64,000 bases of DNA from Escherichia coli (GTDB lineage Bacteria; Pseudomonadota; Gammaproteobacteria; Enterobacterales; Enterobacteriaceae): the NCBI RefSeq assembly GCF_003790525.1, contig NZ_CP033635.1; one strand, written 5' to 3'. Position numbers and translations under genes: made by a program. Position 1 is the stretch's first letter. Every line of letters begins with the position of its first letter. Below, piece by piece: positions 3,436 through 39,664 of the stretch. The notes beneath the pieces were generated by a model that made no database searches, was not told the origin of the DNA, and saw only the letters and a list, made by a program, of their open reading frames with translations.

Positions 3436-3615
3436 AGTTGTTATCCGTGTGCGTGTCCATAGAGATGTTACATTTTGTTTCTATAACATCTTTGTACAAT
3501 TTAACAACACAGCAACCATATAAATCAGAGTTAAAACCAATATTTAACTTAACAACGTTAACTCGATCACTCCGTTAACCGAATTTTCCTGCAATCTCAT
3601 TTTATTCTGTCGGGT

Positions 3616-23683: not shown

Positions 23684-23794
23684 TTGACAATATCTGGTAC
23701 GATTCGCCCGCAGCCATCACTGACCACGGGCGAAAGTGTAAAGCAGGTGCCTTACCATCCTGACCTGACAACCGGATATGCGGGGATTGCTCCC

Positions 23795-25130
23795 ATAAGC
23801 GCTAACTTAAGGGTTGTGGTATTACGCCTGATATGATTTAACGTGCCGATGAATTACTCTCACGATAACTGGTCAGCAATTCTGGCCCATATTGGTAAGC
23901 CCGAAGAACTGGATACTTCGGCACGTAATGCCGGGGCTCTAACCCGCCGCCGCGAAATTCGTGATGCTGCAACTCTGCTACGTCTGGGGCTGGCTTACGG
24001 CCCCGGGGGATGTCATTACGTGAAGTCACTGCATGGGCTCAGCTCCATGACGTTGCAACATTATCTGACGTGGCTCTCCTGAAGCGGCTGCGGAATGCCG
24101 CCGACTGGTTTGGCATACTTGCCGCACAAACACTTGCTGTACGCGCCGCAGTTACGGGTTGTACAAGCGGAAAGAGATTGCGTCTTGTCGATGGAACAGC
24201 AATCAGTGCGCCCGGGGGCGGCAGCGCTGAATGGCGACTACATATGGGATATGATCCTCATACCTGTCAGTTCACTGATTTTGAGCTAACCGACAGCAGA
24301 GACGCTGAACGGCTGGACCGATTTGCGCAAACGGCAGACGAGATACGCATTGCTGACCGGGGATTCGGTTCGCGTCCCGAATGTATCCGCTCACTTGCTT
24401 TTGGAGAAGCTGATTATATCGTCCGGGTTCACTGGCGAGGATTGCGCTGGTTAACTGCAGAAGGAATGCGCTTTGACATGATGGGTTTTCTGCGCGGGCT
24501 GGATTGCGGTAAGAACGGTGAAACCACTGTAATGATAGGCAATTCAGGTAATAAAAAAGCCGGAGCTCCCTTTCCGGCACGTCTCATTGCCGTATCACTT
24601 CCTCCCGAAAAAGCATTAATCAGTAAAACCCGACTGCTCAGCGAGAATCGTCGAAAAGGACGAGTAGTTCAGGCGGAAACGCTGGAAGCAGCGGGCCATG
24701 TGCTATTGCTAACATCATTACCGGAAGATGAATATTCAGCAGAGCAAGTGGCTGATTGTTACCGTCTGCGATGGCAAATTGAACTGGCTTTTAAGCGGCT
24801 CAAAAGTTTGCTGCACCTGGATGCTTTGCGTGCAAAGGAACCTGAACTCGCGAAAGCGTGGATATTTGCTAATCTACTCGCCGCATTTTTAATTGACGAC
24901 ATAATCCAGCCATCGCTGGATTTCCCCCCCAGAAGTGCCGGATCCGAAAAGAAGAACTAACTCGTTGTGGAGAATAACAAAAATGGTCATCTGGAGCTTA
25001 CAGGTGGCCATTCGTGGGACAGTATCCCTGACAGCCTACAAAACGCAATTGAAGAACGCGAGGCATCGTCTTAACGAGGCACCGAGGCGTCGCATTCTTC
25101 AGATGGTTCAACCCTTAAGTTAGCGCTTAT
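23795..25130 (+). mobile_element. Insertion sequence IS186 (IS4 family)
   Basis: Perfect 22-bp terminal inverted repeats (ATAAGCGCTAACTTAAGGGTTG at 23795-23816; reverse complement at 25109-25130), flanked by a 12-bp direct repeat GGGATTGCTCCC (23783-23794 and 25131-25142). Exact ends are ambiguous by 1 bp because the target is palindromic. Confidence 0.9.
23849..24960 (+). pseudogene. insL: IS186 transposase InsL, interrupted by an apparent 1-bp frameshift at a G5 run
   Basis: An N-terminal frame (MNYSHDNW..LAYGPGG, stop at 24080-24082) and a C-terminal frame (MSLREVTAWAQ.., 24010..24960) overlap and switch frame at GGGGG 24005-24009. Together they reconstitute a single IS4-type transposase of about 370 aa. 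Confidence 0.7.
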
Positions 25131-25152
25131 GGGATTGCTCCCCGCACAACGG

Positions 25153-31259: not shown

Positions 31260-34200
31260 TTATTTCCGTACCCGATGTCGGTGCAGCCACATCAGCTTAT
31301 ACGCCGCCGGGATAATAAACAGCGATAGCAAAGGCGCGGTGATCATGCCGCCAATCATCGGCGCGGCAATCCGGCTCATCACCTCTGAACCTGCTCCCGT
31401 TCCCCACAGAATCGGCAGCAGACCGGCGATAATCACCGCCACCGTCATCGCTTTCGGGCGCACGCGCAGGACCGCGCCGTGATACAACGCCTCATCCAGC
31501 TTCTGCTCGCTGAATGTTTGCGGATTATTCAACGACGGCTCGGCCTCTATGGCGTGACGTAAATACATCAGCATCACCACGCCAAATTCGGCGGCGACCC
31601 CGGCAAGGGCAATAAAACCGGTGCCCGTCGCCACGGAAAGATGAAAGCCCATCCACCACAGCAACCAGATGCCGCCCACCAGCGCAAACGGTACGCTGCT
31701 GATAATCAGCAACGCTTCGCCCACCCGACGGAACGCCAGATACAACAGCACGAAGATGATCATCAGCGTCATCGGCACCATCAGTTTCAGCTTATGGTTG
31801 GCGCGCTCCAGTAGCTCGAACTGCCCGGAGAATGCCACGCTGGTGCCCGGTTTTAACTGCACTTTTTCAGCTATCGCTTTTTGCAGATCGTGAACCACCG
31901 ACACCATGTCACGATCGCGGGCATCGATATAAATCCAGCTCGTCGGGCGCGCATTCTCGGTTTTCAGCATCGACGGTCCGGTAGAGACTTTAACGTCGGC
32001 CACGTCTGCCAGGGTGATTTGCTGCTTCATCGGCGTGAGGATCGGCAACTGGCGCAGTGCCTGCGGGCTATCGCGCCAGCTTTGCGGATAACGCAGATTA
32101 ATTGGATAACGAGCAATCCCTTCCACCGTTTCGCCAACCATCGCCCCGCCCACCGCAGATGTCACAAACAATTGCACATCCGCCACCGTCATACCGTAAC
32201 GCGCGGCTTTTTCACGGTTAATCTCAACGTTGATATAGCGCCCACCTTCCAGCCGCTCGGCAAGAGCAGAAGCTACGCCTGGCACCGTTCGCGCCACTTC
32301 TTCAATTTGCTCCGCCATCGTGTCGATATCCGCCAGCACAGTGCCGGAAACTTTAATGCCGATAGGGCTTTTAATGCCAGTCGAGAGCATATCGATACGG
32401 TTACGAATTGGCGGCACCCACAGATTCGCCAGCCCCGGCAGACGCACGGTGTTATCCAGTTCCTCAATGATTTTGTCCATCGTCATGCCTGGCCGCCACT
32501 GATCTTGTGGCTTAAGCTGGATAGTCGTTTCTACCATCTCCAGTGGAGCTGAATCGGTGGCGGTTTCCGCTTTCCCGGTTTTGCCAAATACCCGCGCCAC
32601 TTCCGGTACGCTCATAATCAGCTTGTCGGTTTTTTGCAGCATGCTCGCCGCCTCTGCTGCGGAAATCCCCGGCAGCGTCGATGGCATATACAACAAGTCG
32701 CCTTCATTGATCTGCGGTAAAAATTCCCCGCCAACTTTATTGAGCGGCCAGAGTACCGTCAGCACCGAAAGCGCTGCCACCAACAGCGTGGTTTTCGGCC
32801 AGTGCAGTACTTTCAGCAACAGCGGATGATAAACACGAATCAAAAAGCGATTGAGCGGGTTACTGCTTTCCGGCGGAATTTTGCCACGGATCCAGTAGCC
32901 CATCAGGATCGGGATCACTACGATCGCCAGTAGCGCCGCGCCCGCCATCGCATAGGTTTTGGTGAACGCCAGCGGGCCAAACAGACGACCTTCCTGCCCT
33001 TCCAGGGTGAAGATCGGGATAAACGACAGCGTGATAATCAGCAGACTGATAAACAGCGCCGGCCCCACTTCAACAGATGCATCGGTAATCACCTGCCAGC
33101 GCGTTTTATTATCCAGCGTGGCGTCAGGATGCTGGTGCTGCCACTCTTCCAGCCGTTTATGCGCATTCTCGATCATGACGATAGCGGCATCGACCATCGC
33201 CCCGACGGCAATCGCAATACCGCCCAGCGACATAATATTGGCGTTCAGTCCCTGAAAGTGCATGACAATAAAAGCAATACACAACCCCAGCGGCAACGAA
33301 ATAATCGCCACCAGCGCCGAGCGCACATGCCAGAGAAACAGCGCACAGACTACCGCCACCACAATAAACTCTTCCAGCAACTTGCCACTGAGGTTGTCAA
33401 TGGCGCGGTCAATGAGCTGGCTGCGATCGTATGTTGTAACTATCTCCACGCCTTCCGGCAGACTGCTTTTCAGCGTTTCCAGTTTGTCCTTCACGGCAGC
33501 GATCACTTCACGGGCGTTTTTGCCGGAACGCAGGATCACCACCCCGCCCGCCACTTCGCCTTCGCCGTTCAGTTCGGCAATGCCCCGGCGCATCTCCGGG
33601 CCAACCTGGACCTTCGCAACATCACGCAGATAAACGGGCACGCCATTTTCACTGGCTTTTAAAACGATGTGATTAAAGTCGTCGAGCGTTTGCAGATATC
33701 CGCTGGCGCGCACCATATATTCCGCTTCCGCCAGTTCGATCGACGAACCGCCCGCTTCCTGGTTTGAAGCATCCAGCGCGCTTTTTACTTCGGCGAGACT
33801 GATGCCATACTGCGCCAGGCGCTGAGGATCGATAACCACCTGATACTCTTTCACCACACCGCCCACCGACGCCACTTCCGCAACGTCAGGGATGGTTTTT
33901 AGCTCATATTTGAGAAACCAGTCCTGCAATGAGCGTAAATCGGCCAGATCGTGCTTACCGCTGCGATCTACCAGTGCATATTCATAGATCCAGCCAACGC
34001 CCGTGGCGTCTGGCCCCAGCTCGGCGCTGACTCCCGCAGGCAGCTTCCCCTGTACCTGATTGAGGTACTCCAGCACCCGCGAGCGCGCCCAGTACGGATC
34101 GGTGCCATCTTCAAAAATGACATACACATAAGAGTCGCCAAACTGCGAGAAACCGCGCACTGTCTTCGCGCCAGGTACCGACAACATGGTGGTGGTTAGC

Positions 34201-34403
34201 GGATAAGTCACCTGATTTTCAACGATTTGCGGTGCCTGACCGGGATAGCTGGTTTTAATAATCACCTGTACATCAGAGAGATCCGGCAGCGCATCCACTG
34301 GCGTGTTAATGATGGTCCAGGTGCCCCAGATGCTCAGAAACAACGCGCCCATCAGCACCAGAAAACGGTTCGCCACCGAGCGACGAATAATCCATTCAAT
34401 CAT
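31260..34403 (-). CDS. cusA: Cu(I)/Ag(I) efflux RND transporter
   Basis: 1047-aa RND pump starting [24 protein letters not shown]; recognised as CusA. Confidence 0.95.
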
Positions 34404-34414
34404 TGGTTATTCCC

Positions 34415-35638
34415 TCAATGCGCATGGGTAGCACTTTCAGAGCGCATCCGCTCCAGTGCGCCAGAAATATTGGCTTCAGAATCAATCAGGAACAGGCCGC
34501 TGGAAACCACCTTTTCACCTTCCGCCAGACCAGAGCGTAACGCGGTGACGCCTTGCGATGCCTGGAAAACGGCAACGCGTTTCGGTACAAAGCGCCCGTC
34601 AGCATCAACGGTAATCACCCGCTGTTCGTTGCCGGTATCAATCAGCGCCTGTGACGGAATGAGCAGCATCGGTTCGCTGGCGGTATTGAGTTGCAACCAG
34701 GCGTTCATGCCCGGTTTTAGCGCCTCGTCGGCGTTGTCGACTTCCAGACGCAGTTGTAGCGTGCGGGTCGCGGCATCCACGCCGGGTAGCAGGGTCCATT
34801 TGCGAATGGTGAGTGTTTTATCCGGTCGCGCCGGAACGGTGAGGGTAAACTGCGAGGCATCTTTCACCAGCCAGGCGATGGACTCCGGGATCGCAGCAGT
34901 GACCCACACCGGGTCCATACCCTGAATTTTCGCGACCACGTTATCTTTGGCGATATTCATTCCCGCGCGCAGATCAAACGCGGTGATCACGCCATCAATG
35001 GGCGCTTTGAGCGTAAAGCGAGTCTGGATTTTTTGCGTGGCGATCAGGCGGCGAATATCCGCCTCCGGCATTCCCGCCAGTCTCAGCCGCTCAAGAATGC
35101 CTTCAGTCTGGGTCGCCGTACCGCCGGTTTCGCGCAGCAGTAAATACTCACTCTGCGCTTCCACCCAGTCGGGAATGGTCAGGTCGAGAAGCGGTGTGCC
35201 CTTTTGTACTTTATCGCCCACGGTAAGCGGATACACCTTGTCGATAAACCCGGCAGCGCGAGCCTGCACAATGGCATACTGATACTCGTTGTAACTGACA
35301 TTCGCCGGGAAACTCTGGGCAAAAGTCAGCGGCCCGCGCGTGACGGTCGCCGTTTTCACCCCCAGATTCTGCGTCTGGGTCGGGTCAATGCGTACACCAG
35401 ACGCAGAACTCTCTTCATCGGCATATTTCGGCACCAGATCCATATCCATAAACGGCGATTTACCTGGTTTATCGAACCGCGTATTGGGATACATCGGGTC
35501 GTACCAGAATAAGATTTTACGTTCTGCGGTCGGCGTTTTTTCTGCGGGCGGTTCAGCCTTTGCAAACCAGGTAAAACCTGCCGCAGAAATAATACCGCCC
35601 GCGATCATGCTGCCGATAATAAGCGCGATTTTTTTCAT
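34415..35638 (-). CDS. cusB: Cu(I)/Ag(I) efflux membrane fusion protein
   Basis: 407-aa ORF; recognised as CusB. Confidence 0.95.
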   Translation of the reverse strand: MKKIALIIGSMIAGGIISAAGFTWFAKAEPPAEKTPTAERKILFWYDPMYPNTRFDKPGKSPFMDMDLVPKYADEESSASGVRIDPTQTQNLGVKTATVTRGPLTFAQSFPANVSYNEYQYAIVQARAAGFIDKVYPLTVGDKVQKGTPLLDLTIPDWVEAQSEYLLLRETGGTATQTEGILERLRLAGMPEADIRRLIATQKIQTRFTLKAPIDGVITAFDLRAGMNIAKDNVVAKIQGMDPVWVTAAIPESIAWLVKDASQFTLTVPARPDKTLTIRKWTLLPGVDAATRTLQLRLEVDNADEALKPGMNAWLQLNTASEPMLLIPSQALIDTGNEQRVITVDADGRFVPKRVAVFQASQGVTALRSGLAEGEKVVSSGLFLIDSEANISGALERMRSESATHAH

Positions 35639-35653
35639 CTCATTAAACCTGGG

Positions 35654-35986
35654 TTACTGGCTGACTTTAATATCCTGTAATAAAGAAAGGTTGCCCTGCT
35701 GGACAAAATTAAACGCCACTTTGTCGCCGGTTTTAATTTCGCTCATTTTCGTCTGCGGGGTGATGGTAAAGCGCATGGTCATCTCCGGCCAGTTCACGGC
35801 AGCAATCGGATCGTGATGGATGGTGATTTTTTTGCTTTCCAGATCAACACCTTTTACCACGCCAGTGGCGCTAATAACCTGTGGCTGTGCTTCGCTCATG
35901 GATTCATGATGATGTTCGTTAGCCTGGGCATTAAAGCCAATAACGGTAAACAGACTAAACATTGCGACTTGCAGTGCTTTTTTCAT
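35654..35986 (-). CDS. cusF: Periplasmic copper/silver metallochaperone
   Basis: 110-aa ORF with a signal peptide and a His-rich N-terminus; recognised as CusF. Confidence 0.93.
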   Translation of the reverse strand: MKKALQVAMFSLFTVIGFNAQANEHHHESMSEAQPQVISATGVVKGVDLESKKITIHHDPIAAVNWPEMTMRFTITPQTKMSEIKTGDKVAFNFVQQGNLSLLQDIKVSQ

Positions 35987-36009
35987 TTATTCTCTCCTGG
36001 AGTTAAAAA

Positions 36010-37392
36010 TTATTGCTGCCAACCGCCGCCTAAGGCGGTATATAAAGAAATTTCGTTAACCTGACGGGCATAATTCAGGTCAAGTAAAGTTTGTCGGGTT
36101 GCAAATAAAGAACGCTCGGCATCCAGCACTTCCAGATAACTTACTGCGCCGTGCTGATATAATGCCCGCGCCCGTTGCAAAGTAATTTTCAGCGATGCCA
36201 GATAACGCTGCTGGGCGCTGATTTGATCGTTCAGGCTTTGACGTAATGCCAGCGCATCTGCCACTTCTTTAAAGGCATTCTGGATTTTCTGTTCATAATT
36301 CACCACCGACTGCTGCTGGCGAATTTCGGCGATATCCAGATTGGCCTGGTTGCGTCCGGCATTAAAAATGGGGATCTCAATTTTGGGTATAAAATTCCAC
36401 ATCCCGCTGCTGGCGTTAAATAATGACGACAGATCGCTACTGGCGGTCGATATTCCGCTGGTCAGGCTGATAGACGGGAAAAATGCCGCGCGTGCAGCGC
36501 CAATATTGGCATTAGCCGCCATTAACGCGTGTTCAGCTTCCATAATATCAGGGCGCTGCAATAAGATTTGCGACGGCAAGCCCGCCGGTAATTTAACGCT
36601 TTGCAGGCTGTCGCTGTTTACTGTCTGCGCTTGCGGCAGCTTGCCGTAGCTTCCCAATAACAGTTGCAATGCATTATTCGCCTGCGCCAGTTCCCCCTGA
36701 CGTTTAGCGATGTCGCTGCGGGTACTTTCTATCACCCCGCGAGCCTGTTCTAGCGCCAGAACATTGCTGCTACCGGTCAACAGTTGTTTTTCGACAAATG
36801 CATATGACTGCTGATAATTACGCAGCGTTTCTTCGGCTATTTGCAATTGCGCATACGCCAGTTGCTGATTGAAATAGCTTTGCGCGACATTAGAAACCAG
36901 CAGAATATGCACCGCGCGCTGAGCTTCCTCAGTAGCTAAATAATTTTGACGCTCGGCTTCGCTCATGTTCTTTAAGCGCCCGAAAAAATCGAGGTCAAAG
37001 CTGGCGTTAAGGCCGGTCGAAAACTCCCGTGTCGTGGCGGTATTCCCTTTAAGATTACCGCTCCAGCTGCCGCTGCCCTCGCCATTGAGCTGTGGGTAGC
37101 GGTCGGCATCGGTCAGACGATATTGCGCCCGTGCCTCCTGCACTTTCAGCGCCGCCATGCGCAAATCCCGGTTATTCACCAACGCCTCGCTAATCAGCGT
37201 CTTCACCTGATTATCAACAAAAAAGGTGCGCCAGCCCGCGTTCTGGTAGTTATCTGCTGCGTTAACCAGGCCGTTCTGGCTGAGTGAGAACTGCTGCGGC
37301 ACGGGCATTGCCGGACGCTGATAATCCGGTGCCAGTGAACAACCGGTTAGCGCAAGGGCCACACAAAATGGCAGAAGTTTACAAGGAGACAT
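36010..37392 (-). CDS. cusC: Outer-membrane efflux channel (lipoprotein) of the Cus system
   Basis: ORF starting MSPCKLLPFCVALALTGCSLAPDYQRP with a lipobox (LTGC); recognised as CusC. Confidence 0.93.
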   Translation of the reverse strand: MSPCKLLPFCVALALTGCSLAPDYQRPAMPVPQQFSLSQNGLVNAADNYQNAGWRTFFVDNQVKTLISEALVNNRDLRMAALKVQEARAQYRLTDADRYPQLNGEGSGSWSGNLKGNTATTREFSTGLNASFDLDFFGRLKNMSEAERQNYLATEEAQRAVHILLVSNVAQSYFNQQLAYAQLQIAEETLRNYQQSYAFVEKQLLTGSSNVLALEQARGVIESTRSDIAKRQGELAQANNALQLLLGSYGKLPQAQTVNSDSLQSVKLPAGLPSQILLQRPDIMEAEHALMAANANIGAARAAFFPSISLTSGISTASSDLSSLFNASSGMWNFIPKIEIPIFNAGRNQANLDIAEIRQQQSVVNYEQKIQNAFKEVADALALRQSLNDQISAQQRYLASLKITLQRARALYQHGAVSYLEVLDAERSLFATRQTLLDLNYARQVNEISLYTALGGGWQQ

Positions 37393-37462
37393 AGGCTCAT
37401 AATTTCTGGTGATTTTATGCCGCCAACTTTACTCGCCAGGCTCTGATTTTCCGGTGACAGGA

Positions 37463-37484
37463 AAATGACAAAATTGTCATTTTG
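37463..37484. promoter_or_regulatory. CusR operator (perfect palindrome) in the divergent cusC / cusR promoter region
   Basis: AAAATGACAAAATTGTCATTTT is a perfect inverted repeat located between cusC and cusR. Confidence 0.7.
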
Positions 37485-37548
37485 CCAATAAGCGATTGCC
37501 ATCTGATCCCGCTACTCTAGAATTGCCCGGGCAACATGCGGAGGAAAT

Positions 37549-38232
37549 ATGAAACTGTTGATTGTCGAAGATGAAAAGAAAACCGGAGAATACTTGACCA
37601 AAGGGTTAACCGAAGCCGGTTTTGTGGTCGATTTGGCCGACAACGGGCTGAATGGCTACCATCTGGCGATGACCGGTGATTATGATCTGATAATCCTCGA
37701 TATTATGCTGCCGGACGTGAACGGCTGGGATATCGTGCGCATGTTGCGTTCCGCCAATAAGGGGATGCCGATTCTGTTGCTTACCGCGCTTGGCACCATT
37801 GAACATCGCGTCAAGGGGCTGGAGTTGGGGGCGGATGACTATCTGGTTAAGCCGTTCGCTTTTGCTGAACTGCTGGCGCGGGTGCGCACTCTACTGCGGC
37901 GCGGGGCGGCGGTGATTATCGAAAGTCAGTTTCAGGTTGCCGATCTGATGGTCGATCTCGTCAGCCGCAAAGTCACCCGTAGCGGCACGCGCATCACGTT
38001 GACCAGTAAAGAATTTACTTTGCTGGAGTTTTTCCTCCGCCATCAGGGTGAAGTGCTGCCCCGCTCGCTTATCGCCTCGCAGGTGTGGGACATGAATTTC
38101 GACAGCGACACTAACGCCATTGATGTGGCGGTGAAGCGGCTACGCGGCAAAATCGACAACGACTTTGAGCCGAAGCTGATTCAGACCGTGCGCGGCGTGG
38201 GCTATATGCTTGAGGTGCCGGATGGTCAGTAA
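37549..38232 (+). CDS. cusR: Copper-responsive two-component response regulator (OmpR family)
   Basis: 227-aa [28 protein letters not shown]; recognised as CusR. Confidence 0.95.
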
Positions 38233-39664
38233 GCCATTTCAGCGCCCGTTTTCGCTGGCAACCCGTCTGACCTTTTTTATCAGCCTGGCCACCATCGCGG
38301 CGTTTTTCGCCTTTGCATGGATCATGATCCACTCGGTAAAAGTGCATTTTGCCGAGCAGGATATTAATGATTTAAAAGAGATTAGCGCCACCCTTGAACG
38401 GGTACTTAATCACCCTGACGAAACGCAAGCCCGACGCTTAATGACGCTGGAAGATATCGTCAGTGGTTATTCCAACGTGTTGATTTCTCTGGTAGATAGC
38501 CACGGTAAAACGGTGTATCACTCCCCCGGTGCGCCGGATATCCGCGAGTTTGCACGTGATGCCATACCCGATAAAGACGCTCGGGGCGGCGAGGTGTATC
38601 TCCTTTCCGGCCCGACAATGATGATGCCAGGCCACGGTCACGGACATATGGAACACAGCAACTGGCGGATGATTAACTTGCCGGTTGGCCCGCTGGTGGA
38701 CGGCAAACCGATTTATACGCTCTACATCGCGCTGTCTATCGATTTTCATCTTCATTACATTAATGATTTGATGAATAAACTTATTATGACCGCATCGGTA
38801 ATCAGCATTCTGATCGTCTTTATCGTGCTGTTGGCGGTACATAAAGGTCACGCGCCGATCCGCAGCGTCAGCCGTCAAATCCAGAACATTACCTCGAAAG
38901 ATCTCGACGTTCGCCTCGATCCACAGACCGTGCCCATTGAACTCGAACAACTGGTGCTGTCGTTCAACCATATGATCGAGCGTATTGAGGATGTCTTTAC
39001 CCGCCAGTCCAATTTCTCAGCGGATATCGCCCACGAAATTCGTACACCAATTACGAATCTCATAACGCAAACGGAAATCGCCCTCAGCCAGTCGCGCAGC
39101 CAGAAGGAGCTGGAAGATGTGCTCTACTCTAATCTCGAAGAGCTGACGCGAATGGCGAAAATGGTCAGCGATATGTTGTTTCTCGCCCAGGCCGATAACA
39201 ACCAGTTAATCCCCGAAAAGAAAATGCTCAACCTGGCGGATGAAGTCGGCAAAGTGTTCGATTTTTTCGAGGCGTTAGCGGAAGATCGCGGCGTGGAGTT
39301 GCGGTTTGTTGGTGACGAGTGTCAGGTTGCGGGCGATCCGCTGATGTTGCGTCGGGCGTTAAGCAACCTACTTTCTAATGCCCTGCGTTATACGCCAACC
39401 GGAGAGACAATTGTCGTGCGCTGCCAGACGGTCGATCACCTGGTGCAAGTTACCGTCGAAAACCCTGGTACGCCCATTGCGCCTGAGCACTTACCGCGAT
39501 TGTTTGACCGTTTCTACCGCATTGATCCTTCCCGCCAGCGAAAAGGCGAAGGTAGCGGTATTGGCCTGGCGATAGTGAAATCGATTGTTGTCGCGCATAA
39601 AGGCACGGTTGCGGTAACGTCAGATGCGCGGGGAACAAGGTTTGTTATCATATTACCCGCTTAA
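38222..39664 (+). CDS. cusS: Copper/silver-sensing histidine kinase
   Basis: 480-aa protein starting [10 protein letters not shown]; overlaps the cusR 3' end by 11 nt. Confidence 0.93.

Follow-up and report, generated by a model that had tools for sequence, protein, structure and literature searches.

The CusR box of Escherichia coli is the closest described relative of the site analyzed here. In K-12 it is given as AAAATGACAAnnTTGTCATTTT, located between cusRS and cusC(F)BA (PMC11195947), and where it is quoted in that article and in PMC9725139 S1 it is attributed to Yamamoto & Ishihama 2005, the latter account stating that the site was originally defined through DNase I footprinting. According to the literature, CusR is phosphorylated in a CusS-dependent manner, both CusR and HprR bind in the spacer, and copper induces cusC and cusR. 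By genomic SELEX, the peaks of CusR and of HprR were both located in the cusC/cusR spacer (PMC8249747), and a ChIP-chip preprint detected one CusR peak, in this same spacer, under copper. Both operons are activated from the CusR box (summarized in PMC10920338), and autoregulation of PcusR by copper has been estimated at ~5-fold (PMC9725139 main text); in the printed sequence, a -35 hexamer is indicated for PcusC as well as for PcusR, the latter as TGGCAA (PMC9725139 S1). The simple activator picture is incomplete, however, because unphosphorylated CusR has been described as a repressor of cusCFBA (PMC8249747). Regarding the mode of binding, a head-to-head arrangement such as that of the CusR site departs from what is typical of the OmpR subfamily, phosphorylated CusR binds head-to-tail in SELEX, and a possible additional half-site downstream of the identified CusR site has already been noted (PMC9725139 S1).

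Other operators of this kind have been described in E. coli and elsewhere. The box in the hiuH-hprR spacer, CATTACAAAATTGTAATG (PMC9302797), is bound by both regulators, and pcoE is directly controlled by CusR through TGACAAnnTTGTCAT (PMC11195947). PMC7380067 traces the sil/pco "copper box" to Rouch & Brown 1997. In Cupriavidus metallidurans, the AgrR box is ATKACANNNNTGTMAT, with a 6-4-6 arrangement, and an in-phase direct repeat accompanies it at some operators only; mutation shows that the inverted repeat and the direct repeat both contribute or are needed, and class II activation was proposed (PMC7380067). In Pseudomonas paraeruginosa, the CusR/CopR/CzcR palindrome ATTCATnnATGTAAT is likewise a single site, in the divergent spacer by cusR, that serves several paralogous regulators, and mutation of an analogous palindrome in Pseudomonas led to the loss of induction (PMC11195947).

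The site studied here lies in a 64-kb window, by which we mean the whole stretch of E. coli DNA that was analyzed. The surrounding genes were located as follows.

31260-37392, minus strand: cusCFBA operon (NCBIfam matches over curated cut-offs, RefSeq)
31260-34403, minus strand: cusA (NCBIfam, over curated cut-off)
34415-35638, minus strand: cusB (NCBIfam, over curated cut-off)
35654-35986, minus strand: cusF (NCBIfam, over curated cut-off)
36010-37392, minus strand: cusC (NCBIfam, 904 bits)
37393-37548, no strand: divergent cusC/cusR intergenic region, 156 bp (ORFs and RefSeq annotation)
37549-39664, plus strand: cusRS operon (NCBIfam, RefSeq)
37549-38232, plus strand: cusR, OmpR/PhoB-family response regulator (NF007346, 507.9 bits, cut-off 420)
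38222-39664, plus strand: cusS, sensor kinase (NF007345, 982.9 bits)

Open reading frames, NCBIfam scores and RefSeq annotation all concur with the preliminary description of this DNA in placing the site between divergent cusCFBA and cusRS operons, and the intergenic coordinates given there (37393-37548) were right, with cusC starting at 37392 on the minus strand and cusR at 37549 on the plus strand. CusR also scored 323.9 bits on TIGR01387, and the adjoining regulator is a heavy-metal response regulator of the OmpR/PhoB family; its solved relatives include the PcoR DNA-binding domain (2jzy) and also KdpE, BasR/PmrA and PhoP. The region from 36900 to 38300 was 100% identical to E. coli SMS-3-5, where it is annotated as cusC/cusR/cusS, and to many other strains, and it was matched in 5336 of 5426 complete E. 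coli genomes. Compared to K-12 MG1655, one of the 156 spacer bases differs (G here, A in K-12, at 37461), outside the box. The product of cusC, an outer-membrane channel, has 460 aa here versus 457 aa in K-12 (595600-596973), a 3-codon difference.

Apart from this locus, the window carries, at 23795-25130, an insertion of 1336 bp with respect to SMS-3-5, in what is annotated in that strain as the hokE/entD spacer. A direct repeat of 12 bp (GGGATTGCTCCC, at 23783-23794 and 25131-25142) borders the insertion, which has terminal inverted repeats of ~23 bp and an ORF for a DDE transposase (24010-24960, Pfam PF01609) and which resembles IS186. The remaining window is 99.99-100% identical to SMS-3-5. 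Mapping to the annotation of this strain also places a tRNA-Arg gene (about 46891-46967) directly beside envY with no prophage between them, a place where K-12 presumably carries the DLP12 prophage and ompT.

The 22-mer AAAATGACAAAATTGTCATTTT exists in the window as a single copy, although at 37462-37483, one base to the left of the position given in the preliminary description, where the letters (37463-37484) actually read AAATGACAAAATTGTCATTTTG. All of its 22 bases are those of the published K-12 box, in the same place between cusC and cusR; the binding assay suggested for this site has therefore, in effect, already been published, on the identical K-12 sequence. The expectation that this was a CusR binding site is thus borne out by that identity, by the flanking genes and by the literature, in which, as the preliminary description also held, the CusR site of the cus spacer is known biology. 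By identity to K-12, from whose literature the binding by CusR and HprR is taken, the 22-mer is an already characterized, ordinary CusR operator.

The description of this element as an exact 22-bp inverted repeat stands for its two 10-nt arms, which a repeat finder scored as 100% complementary, separated by the dinucleotide AA. As this central AA cannot pair with itself, the element is not a perfect palindrome, and comparison of the 22-mer with its own reverse complement showed a mismatch at the two central bases. A search for further copies found no other match to the pattern AAAATGACAANNTTGTCATTTT in the window, even with 3 mismatches allowed, and no match in 100 shuffles of the window. Perfect inverted repeats as a class (arms ≥10 nt, spacer ≤4 nt) numbered two in the 64-kb window, versus 0.41 expected per shuffled window from dinucleotide shuffles; one such repeat in 64 kb is unremarkable on its own because ~0.4 are expected by shuffling. 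The second of these two repeats, CCGGATGCGAAAACTCGCATCCGG at 55665-55688, also with 10-nt arms, maps between the convergent cysS and ybcI by SMS-3-5 coordinates and is probably a bidirectional terminator hairpin.

Beyond the 22-mer, the spacer contains a further half-site and predicted promoter elements on both sides. In the following list, the three half-sites are designated HS1 to HS3.

37426-37431, minus strand: TAAAGT, predicted cusC -10 hexamer (alignment column, 23 nt after HS3)
37443-37449, minus strand: AAATCAG, putative element with consensus aaaCAG, between HS3 and the -10 (column conservation)
37454-37459, minus strand: HS3, GTGACA on the plus strand and TGTCAC toward cusC, with pentamer core TGACA at 37455-37459
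37462-37483, no strand: CusR/HprR box, AAAATGACAA-AA-TTGTCATTTT, matching the published K-12 CusR box
37462-37471 and 37474-37483: arms of the inverted repeat
37466-37470: HS2 core TGACA, in the arm proximal to the cusC promoter
37475-37479: HS1 core TGTCA, in the distal arm of the box
37496-37523, plus strand: cusR promoter, with -35 TTGCCA (37496-37501), 16-nt spacer and -10 TAGAAT (37518-37523)

HS1 and HS2 are 9 bp apart, centre to centre. HS3 repeats HS2 in direct orientation and in phase, at a distance of 11 bp on the side of the cusC promoter, and spans about -40 to -36 relative to the predicted cusC start. This start would lie near 37419 on the minus strand, with the box centre at about -53.5; this agrees with the cusC start of RegulonDB/EcoCyc, which we take to centre the box at -53.5. 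No recognizable -35 hexamer was found on the cusC side. On the cusR side, the promoter scored 10/12 matches in the scan, and its predicted start, near 37530 on the plus strand, would put the box centre at about -57.5. The layout of this side (box, 16 nt, TTGnnA, 16 nt, TA(G/C)AAT) is repeated in silR, Lelliottia and Denitrificimonas. A sequence nearly identical to the cusR upstream region of Denitrificimonas caeni, a gammaproteobacterium, also appeared in a 2.5-kb MAG contig binned as Bacteroidales (DUQY01000315.1), which was probably mis-binned or horizontally transferred.

Eleven promoters were oriented toward the structural gene and aligned without gaps, anchored on the box: E. coli cusC, plasmid silC, silE and pcoE, K-12 hiuH, and those of Lelliottia, Denitrificimonas, Providencia, Collimonas, Moritella (copA) and Caballeronia. 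Four conserved blocks followed each other in this order: the palindrome ATGACAAnnTTGTCATT, HS3 at +11, aaaCAG, and a TAnnnT hexamer. HS3, with consensus (n)GTCA(c), was found at the identical offset on the structural-gene side in 11/11 promoters, and the hexamer exactly 23 nt past HS3, again in all eleven, these being homologous promoters whose shared descent inflates the apparent conservation, even if their flanks have diverged beyond recognition. The hexamer is a perfect TATAAT in pcoE and silE, HS3 is imperfect in some promoters (CGTCA, AGTCA), and aaaCAG is missing from hiuH and replaced by AAAG in Moritella. The aaaCAG block may represent a fourth half-site, degenerate but in phase, or else a place contacted by RNA polymerase.

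Two direct repeats with an 11-bp periodicity that replace the -35 hexamer constitute the Pho box of PhoB. Read toward cusC, HS2 and HS3 form TGTCAttttccTGTCAc, similarly an 11-bp direct repeat at a promoter lacking a -35, although the cus element has an extra inverted half-site and would be situated about one helical turn further upstream; PhoB is not known to bind it. The plasmid sil/pco operators have in common with the cus spacer the core ATGACAAnnTTGTCAT, the third half-site, aaaCAG and the spacing to the -10, and differ from it in the central dinucleotide, in outer A/T positions and in that the silE and pcoE promoters are unidirectional. A likeness, noticed by eye, between the sil version of the box (GATAATGACAAT...) and the start of a Fur box was set aside as a probable coincidence. 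The hiuH box shares with the box of the window its inverted-repeat layout and central AAAATT, as well as the 11-bp step to a third half-site and the 23 nt from there to a -10 hexamer, but its half-site reads TGTAA instead of TGTCA, aaaCAG is absent, and the system responds to H2O2/HOCl. With respect to the AgrR box (PMC7380067), the core of the window, ATGACAAAATTGTCAT at 37465-37480, fits the consensus, and the in-phase direct half-site, promoter-proximal and 11 bp from HS2, reproduces both the direct repeat and the class-II-like position described there, whereas the regulator and the organism are different and AgrR was active unphosphorylated in the mutant studied. The P. paraeruginosa palindrome has another half-site sequence, and no third half-site is reported for it (PMC11195947). 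The third half-site, already mentioned for E. coli CusR and for AgrR, is thus a refinement of the known picture and not a discovery; what the aligned sequences add is that its place is strictly kept in cus, sil, pco and hiuH promoters alike, at a fixed distance from the -10.

A scan of species genomes with AATGACAANNTTGTCATT returned at least 120 loci, so it does not amount to a census. Among the matches listed, a distance of 67-91 bp separated the motif from the start of a gene for a CusR homologue (58-89% identity) in at least 6 loci, and HS3 was present in all six, exactly in four and with one mismatch in two, on the side away from the regulator gene. A CusC-like gene lay across the motif from the regulator in 4/6 of these loci, those in which it was found in the fetched DNA. 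The other 116 occurrences of the palindrome core among the matches listed, away from CusR-like genes, had no exact HS3 (0/116) and two with one mismatch, HS3 being missing from the remaining 114; one of these two belongs to Moritella, where a gene for a multicopper oxidase (copA) starts 85 bp downstream. Distant CusR homologues on plasmids were mixed overall: a Caballeronia plasmid locus conforms to the pattern, a plasmid of Pseudomonas sp. CIP-10 has the palindrome TTACAnnnnTGTAA upstream of copA with no third half-site, and no palindrome was found upstream of the regulator gene for a CusR homologue on a Ralstonia plasmid. Within a 40.7-kb sil/pco plasmid segment, the core occurred 3 times versus 0.28 expected, and exclusively upstream of pcoE, silC/silR and silE.

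Within the species, the 30-mer comprising HS3 and the box (37455-37484) was detected in 5333 of 5426 complete E. coli genomes, at a median of 1 place per genome and a maximum of 2, with 3463 exact records, 1868 with one mismatch and 3 with two. Such conservation says little, as identity over the entire spacer is 95% or more in every E. coli genome. The one-mismatch examples that were aligned (K-12, YDC107) have an A at 37461, within the linker of 6 nt that joins HS3 to the box, and the only common E. coli polymorphism of the 30-mer sits between half-sites. A rare box variant, AAAATGACAATACTGTCATTTT, was found in strain N96 (NZ_CM169999.1 3588399-3588548, aligned to 37395-37544 of the window), the one record examined from the lowest identity band. 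In this variant the central dinucleotide and an inner arm base are altered (AAAATT to ATACTG), and all three pentamers are kept.

A scheme for the operation of this site can be proposed from these data and the published work. Periplasmic Cu(I) or Ag(I) would activate CusS, leading to the phosphorylation of CusR, a regulator with an OmpR/PhoB-type winged helix that would then occupy the inverted repeat TGACA-N4-TGTCA formed by HS1 and HS2, a single site from which the two divergent promoters of cusCFBA and cusRS would be activated. On the cusC side, a further CusR subunit probably binds HS3, reaching about -36, beside RNA polymerase, in an arrangement resembling class II and a pho box. Toward cusR, the box near -57.5 would give a modest, class-I-like stimulation, and with it positive autoregulation, of a promoter expected to be competent with its own -35 and -10 hexamers. 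The paralogue HprR, responsive to H2O2/HOCl, would act on the same site, and the operator would in this way integrate two signals. In this scheme, we infer from the sequence the promoter positions, the role of HS3, how many subunits are bound and how they touch RNA polymerase. The explanation as a whole, i.e. a CusSR operator that serves two divergent promoters, has an extra half-site and is shared with HprR, is one in which we place high confidence. With respect to the preliminary description, its coordinates were off by one, the repeat is organized as 10-2-10, the site is shared with HprR, and the third half-site lies outside the 22 bp.

A more specific reading, which we put forward tentatively as having somewhat less than an even chance of being correct, is that the regulatory unit of the cusC, silC, silE, pcoE and hiuH promoters is not the 22-bp palindrome alone, but a rigid composite module. 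This module would consist of the inverted pair of half-sites, the third in-phase half-site, aaaCAG, and a -10 at a fixed 23 nt. Its promoter-proximal half-site would place a CusR or HprR subunit against RNA polymerase where the -35 is missing, and the symmetric pair would provide affinity and the two-way use of the site.

A different division of labour, in which the head-to-tail repeat of HS2 and HS3 (TGTCA-N6-TGTCA) would be the functional activator site for cusC, the palindrome being incidental there and HS1 serving only cusR or affinity, appears to us unlikely, but deserves serious attention. It is consistent with the maintenance of HS3 and of its 23-nt distance to the -10 in 11/11 promoters, and also with the solved relatives of CusR in the OmpR/PhoB family, since regulators such as KdpE, BasR/PmrA and PhoP bind direct repeats. 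The head-to-tail binding of phosphorylated CusR in SELEX and the extra half-site noted in the same source (PMC9725139 S1) point in the same direction. However, the palindrome is kept at two promoters without a divergent partner, pcoE and silE, mutations of the inverted repeat abolish activation by AgrR (PMC7380067), and decoy sites with the palindrome alone still titrate CusR in vivo (PMC9725139).

That the site is primarily an operator of HprR (YedW) for oxidative stress, with CusR binding as a secondary event, seems very improbable, in spite of the single high peak of HprR in the cus spacer in genomic SELEX, higher than that at the hiuH/hprR spacer (PMC8249747), and of the hiuH box having the same architecture, third half-site included. 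The site adjoins cusR and not hprR, it travels with CusR/SilR homologues on plasmids and in other genera, and CusR was found on it under copper in the ChIP-chip preprint. In any case, such a role of HprR does not exclude that of CusR, as the literature describes cross-regulation between them.

Almost no credence is due to a structural element (intrinsic terminator, RNA hairpin or cruciform) acting with no protein binding. The single-stranded DNA does fold at -7.7 kcal/mol (z = -4 versus shuffles) and is followed by TTTT, but both neighbouring genes diverge, the box lies upstream of both predicted promoters and so should not be transcribed, the loop has only 2-4 nt, no Rfam match was found, and the relatives conserve the pentamer cores, with no compensatory changes. 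An intrinsic terminator proper, with a G+C-rich stem and a T-run at the end of a unit, was rejected on the A/T-rich stem, the diverging genes and a negative terminator scan.

Finally, that the palindrome arose by chance or serves an unrelated regulator family, e.g. of LacI type, is barely credible: shuffling yields ~0.4 such repeats per 64 kb and a lacI-like gene is preceded by an operator with identical 16 specified bases in many genomes of Collinsella, but chance is excluded because the repeat, unique in the window, falls in the 156-bp divergent promoter region and is kept there across genera, beside CusR homologues, and the central CG of the Collinsella site is missing here and no LacI-family gene adjoins it. 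In Collinsella itself, the 18-mer AATGACAACGTTGTCATT and a second, degenerate copy are found at one orthologous locus in many species bins (at 3561-3578 in one of the sequences compared), ~100 bp upstream of a gene for a LacI-family regulator in at least ~40 of the matches listed. This motif is an unrelated operator whose core is shared by convergence.

The CusR box controls the main system by which E. coli detoxifies copper and silver in the periplasm. Its counterparts on plasmids (sil, pco) govern resistance to silver and copper in isolates from clinics and farms, and the box is also employed in copper biosensors. As a binding site it offers no new lesson, and the added value of the present analysis is the comparative support for a module of three half-sites. 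Engineered PcusC parts or decoys built with the 22-bp palindrome alone omit HS3 and the spacer element, both of which probably affect affinity, cooperativity and output. Moreover, if the composite module is correct, CusR-type regulators would mix head-to-head and head-to-tail binding within the OmpR/PhoB family, a binding mode for which there have so far been only hints in E. coli (PMC9725139 S1) and a partial demonstration with AgrR.
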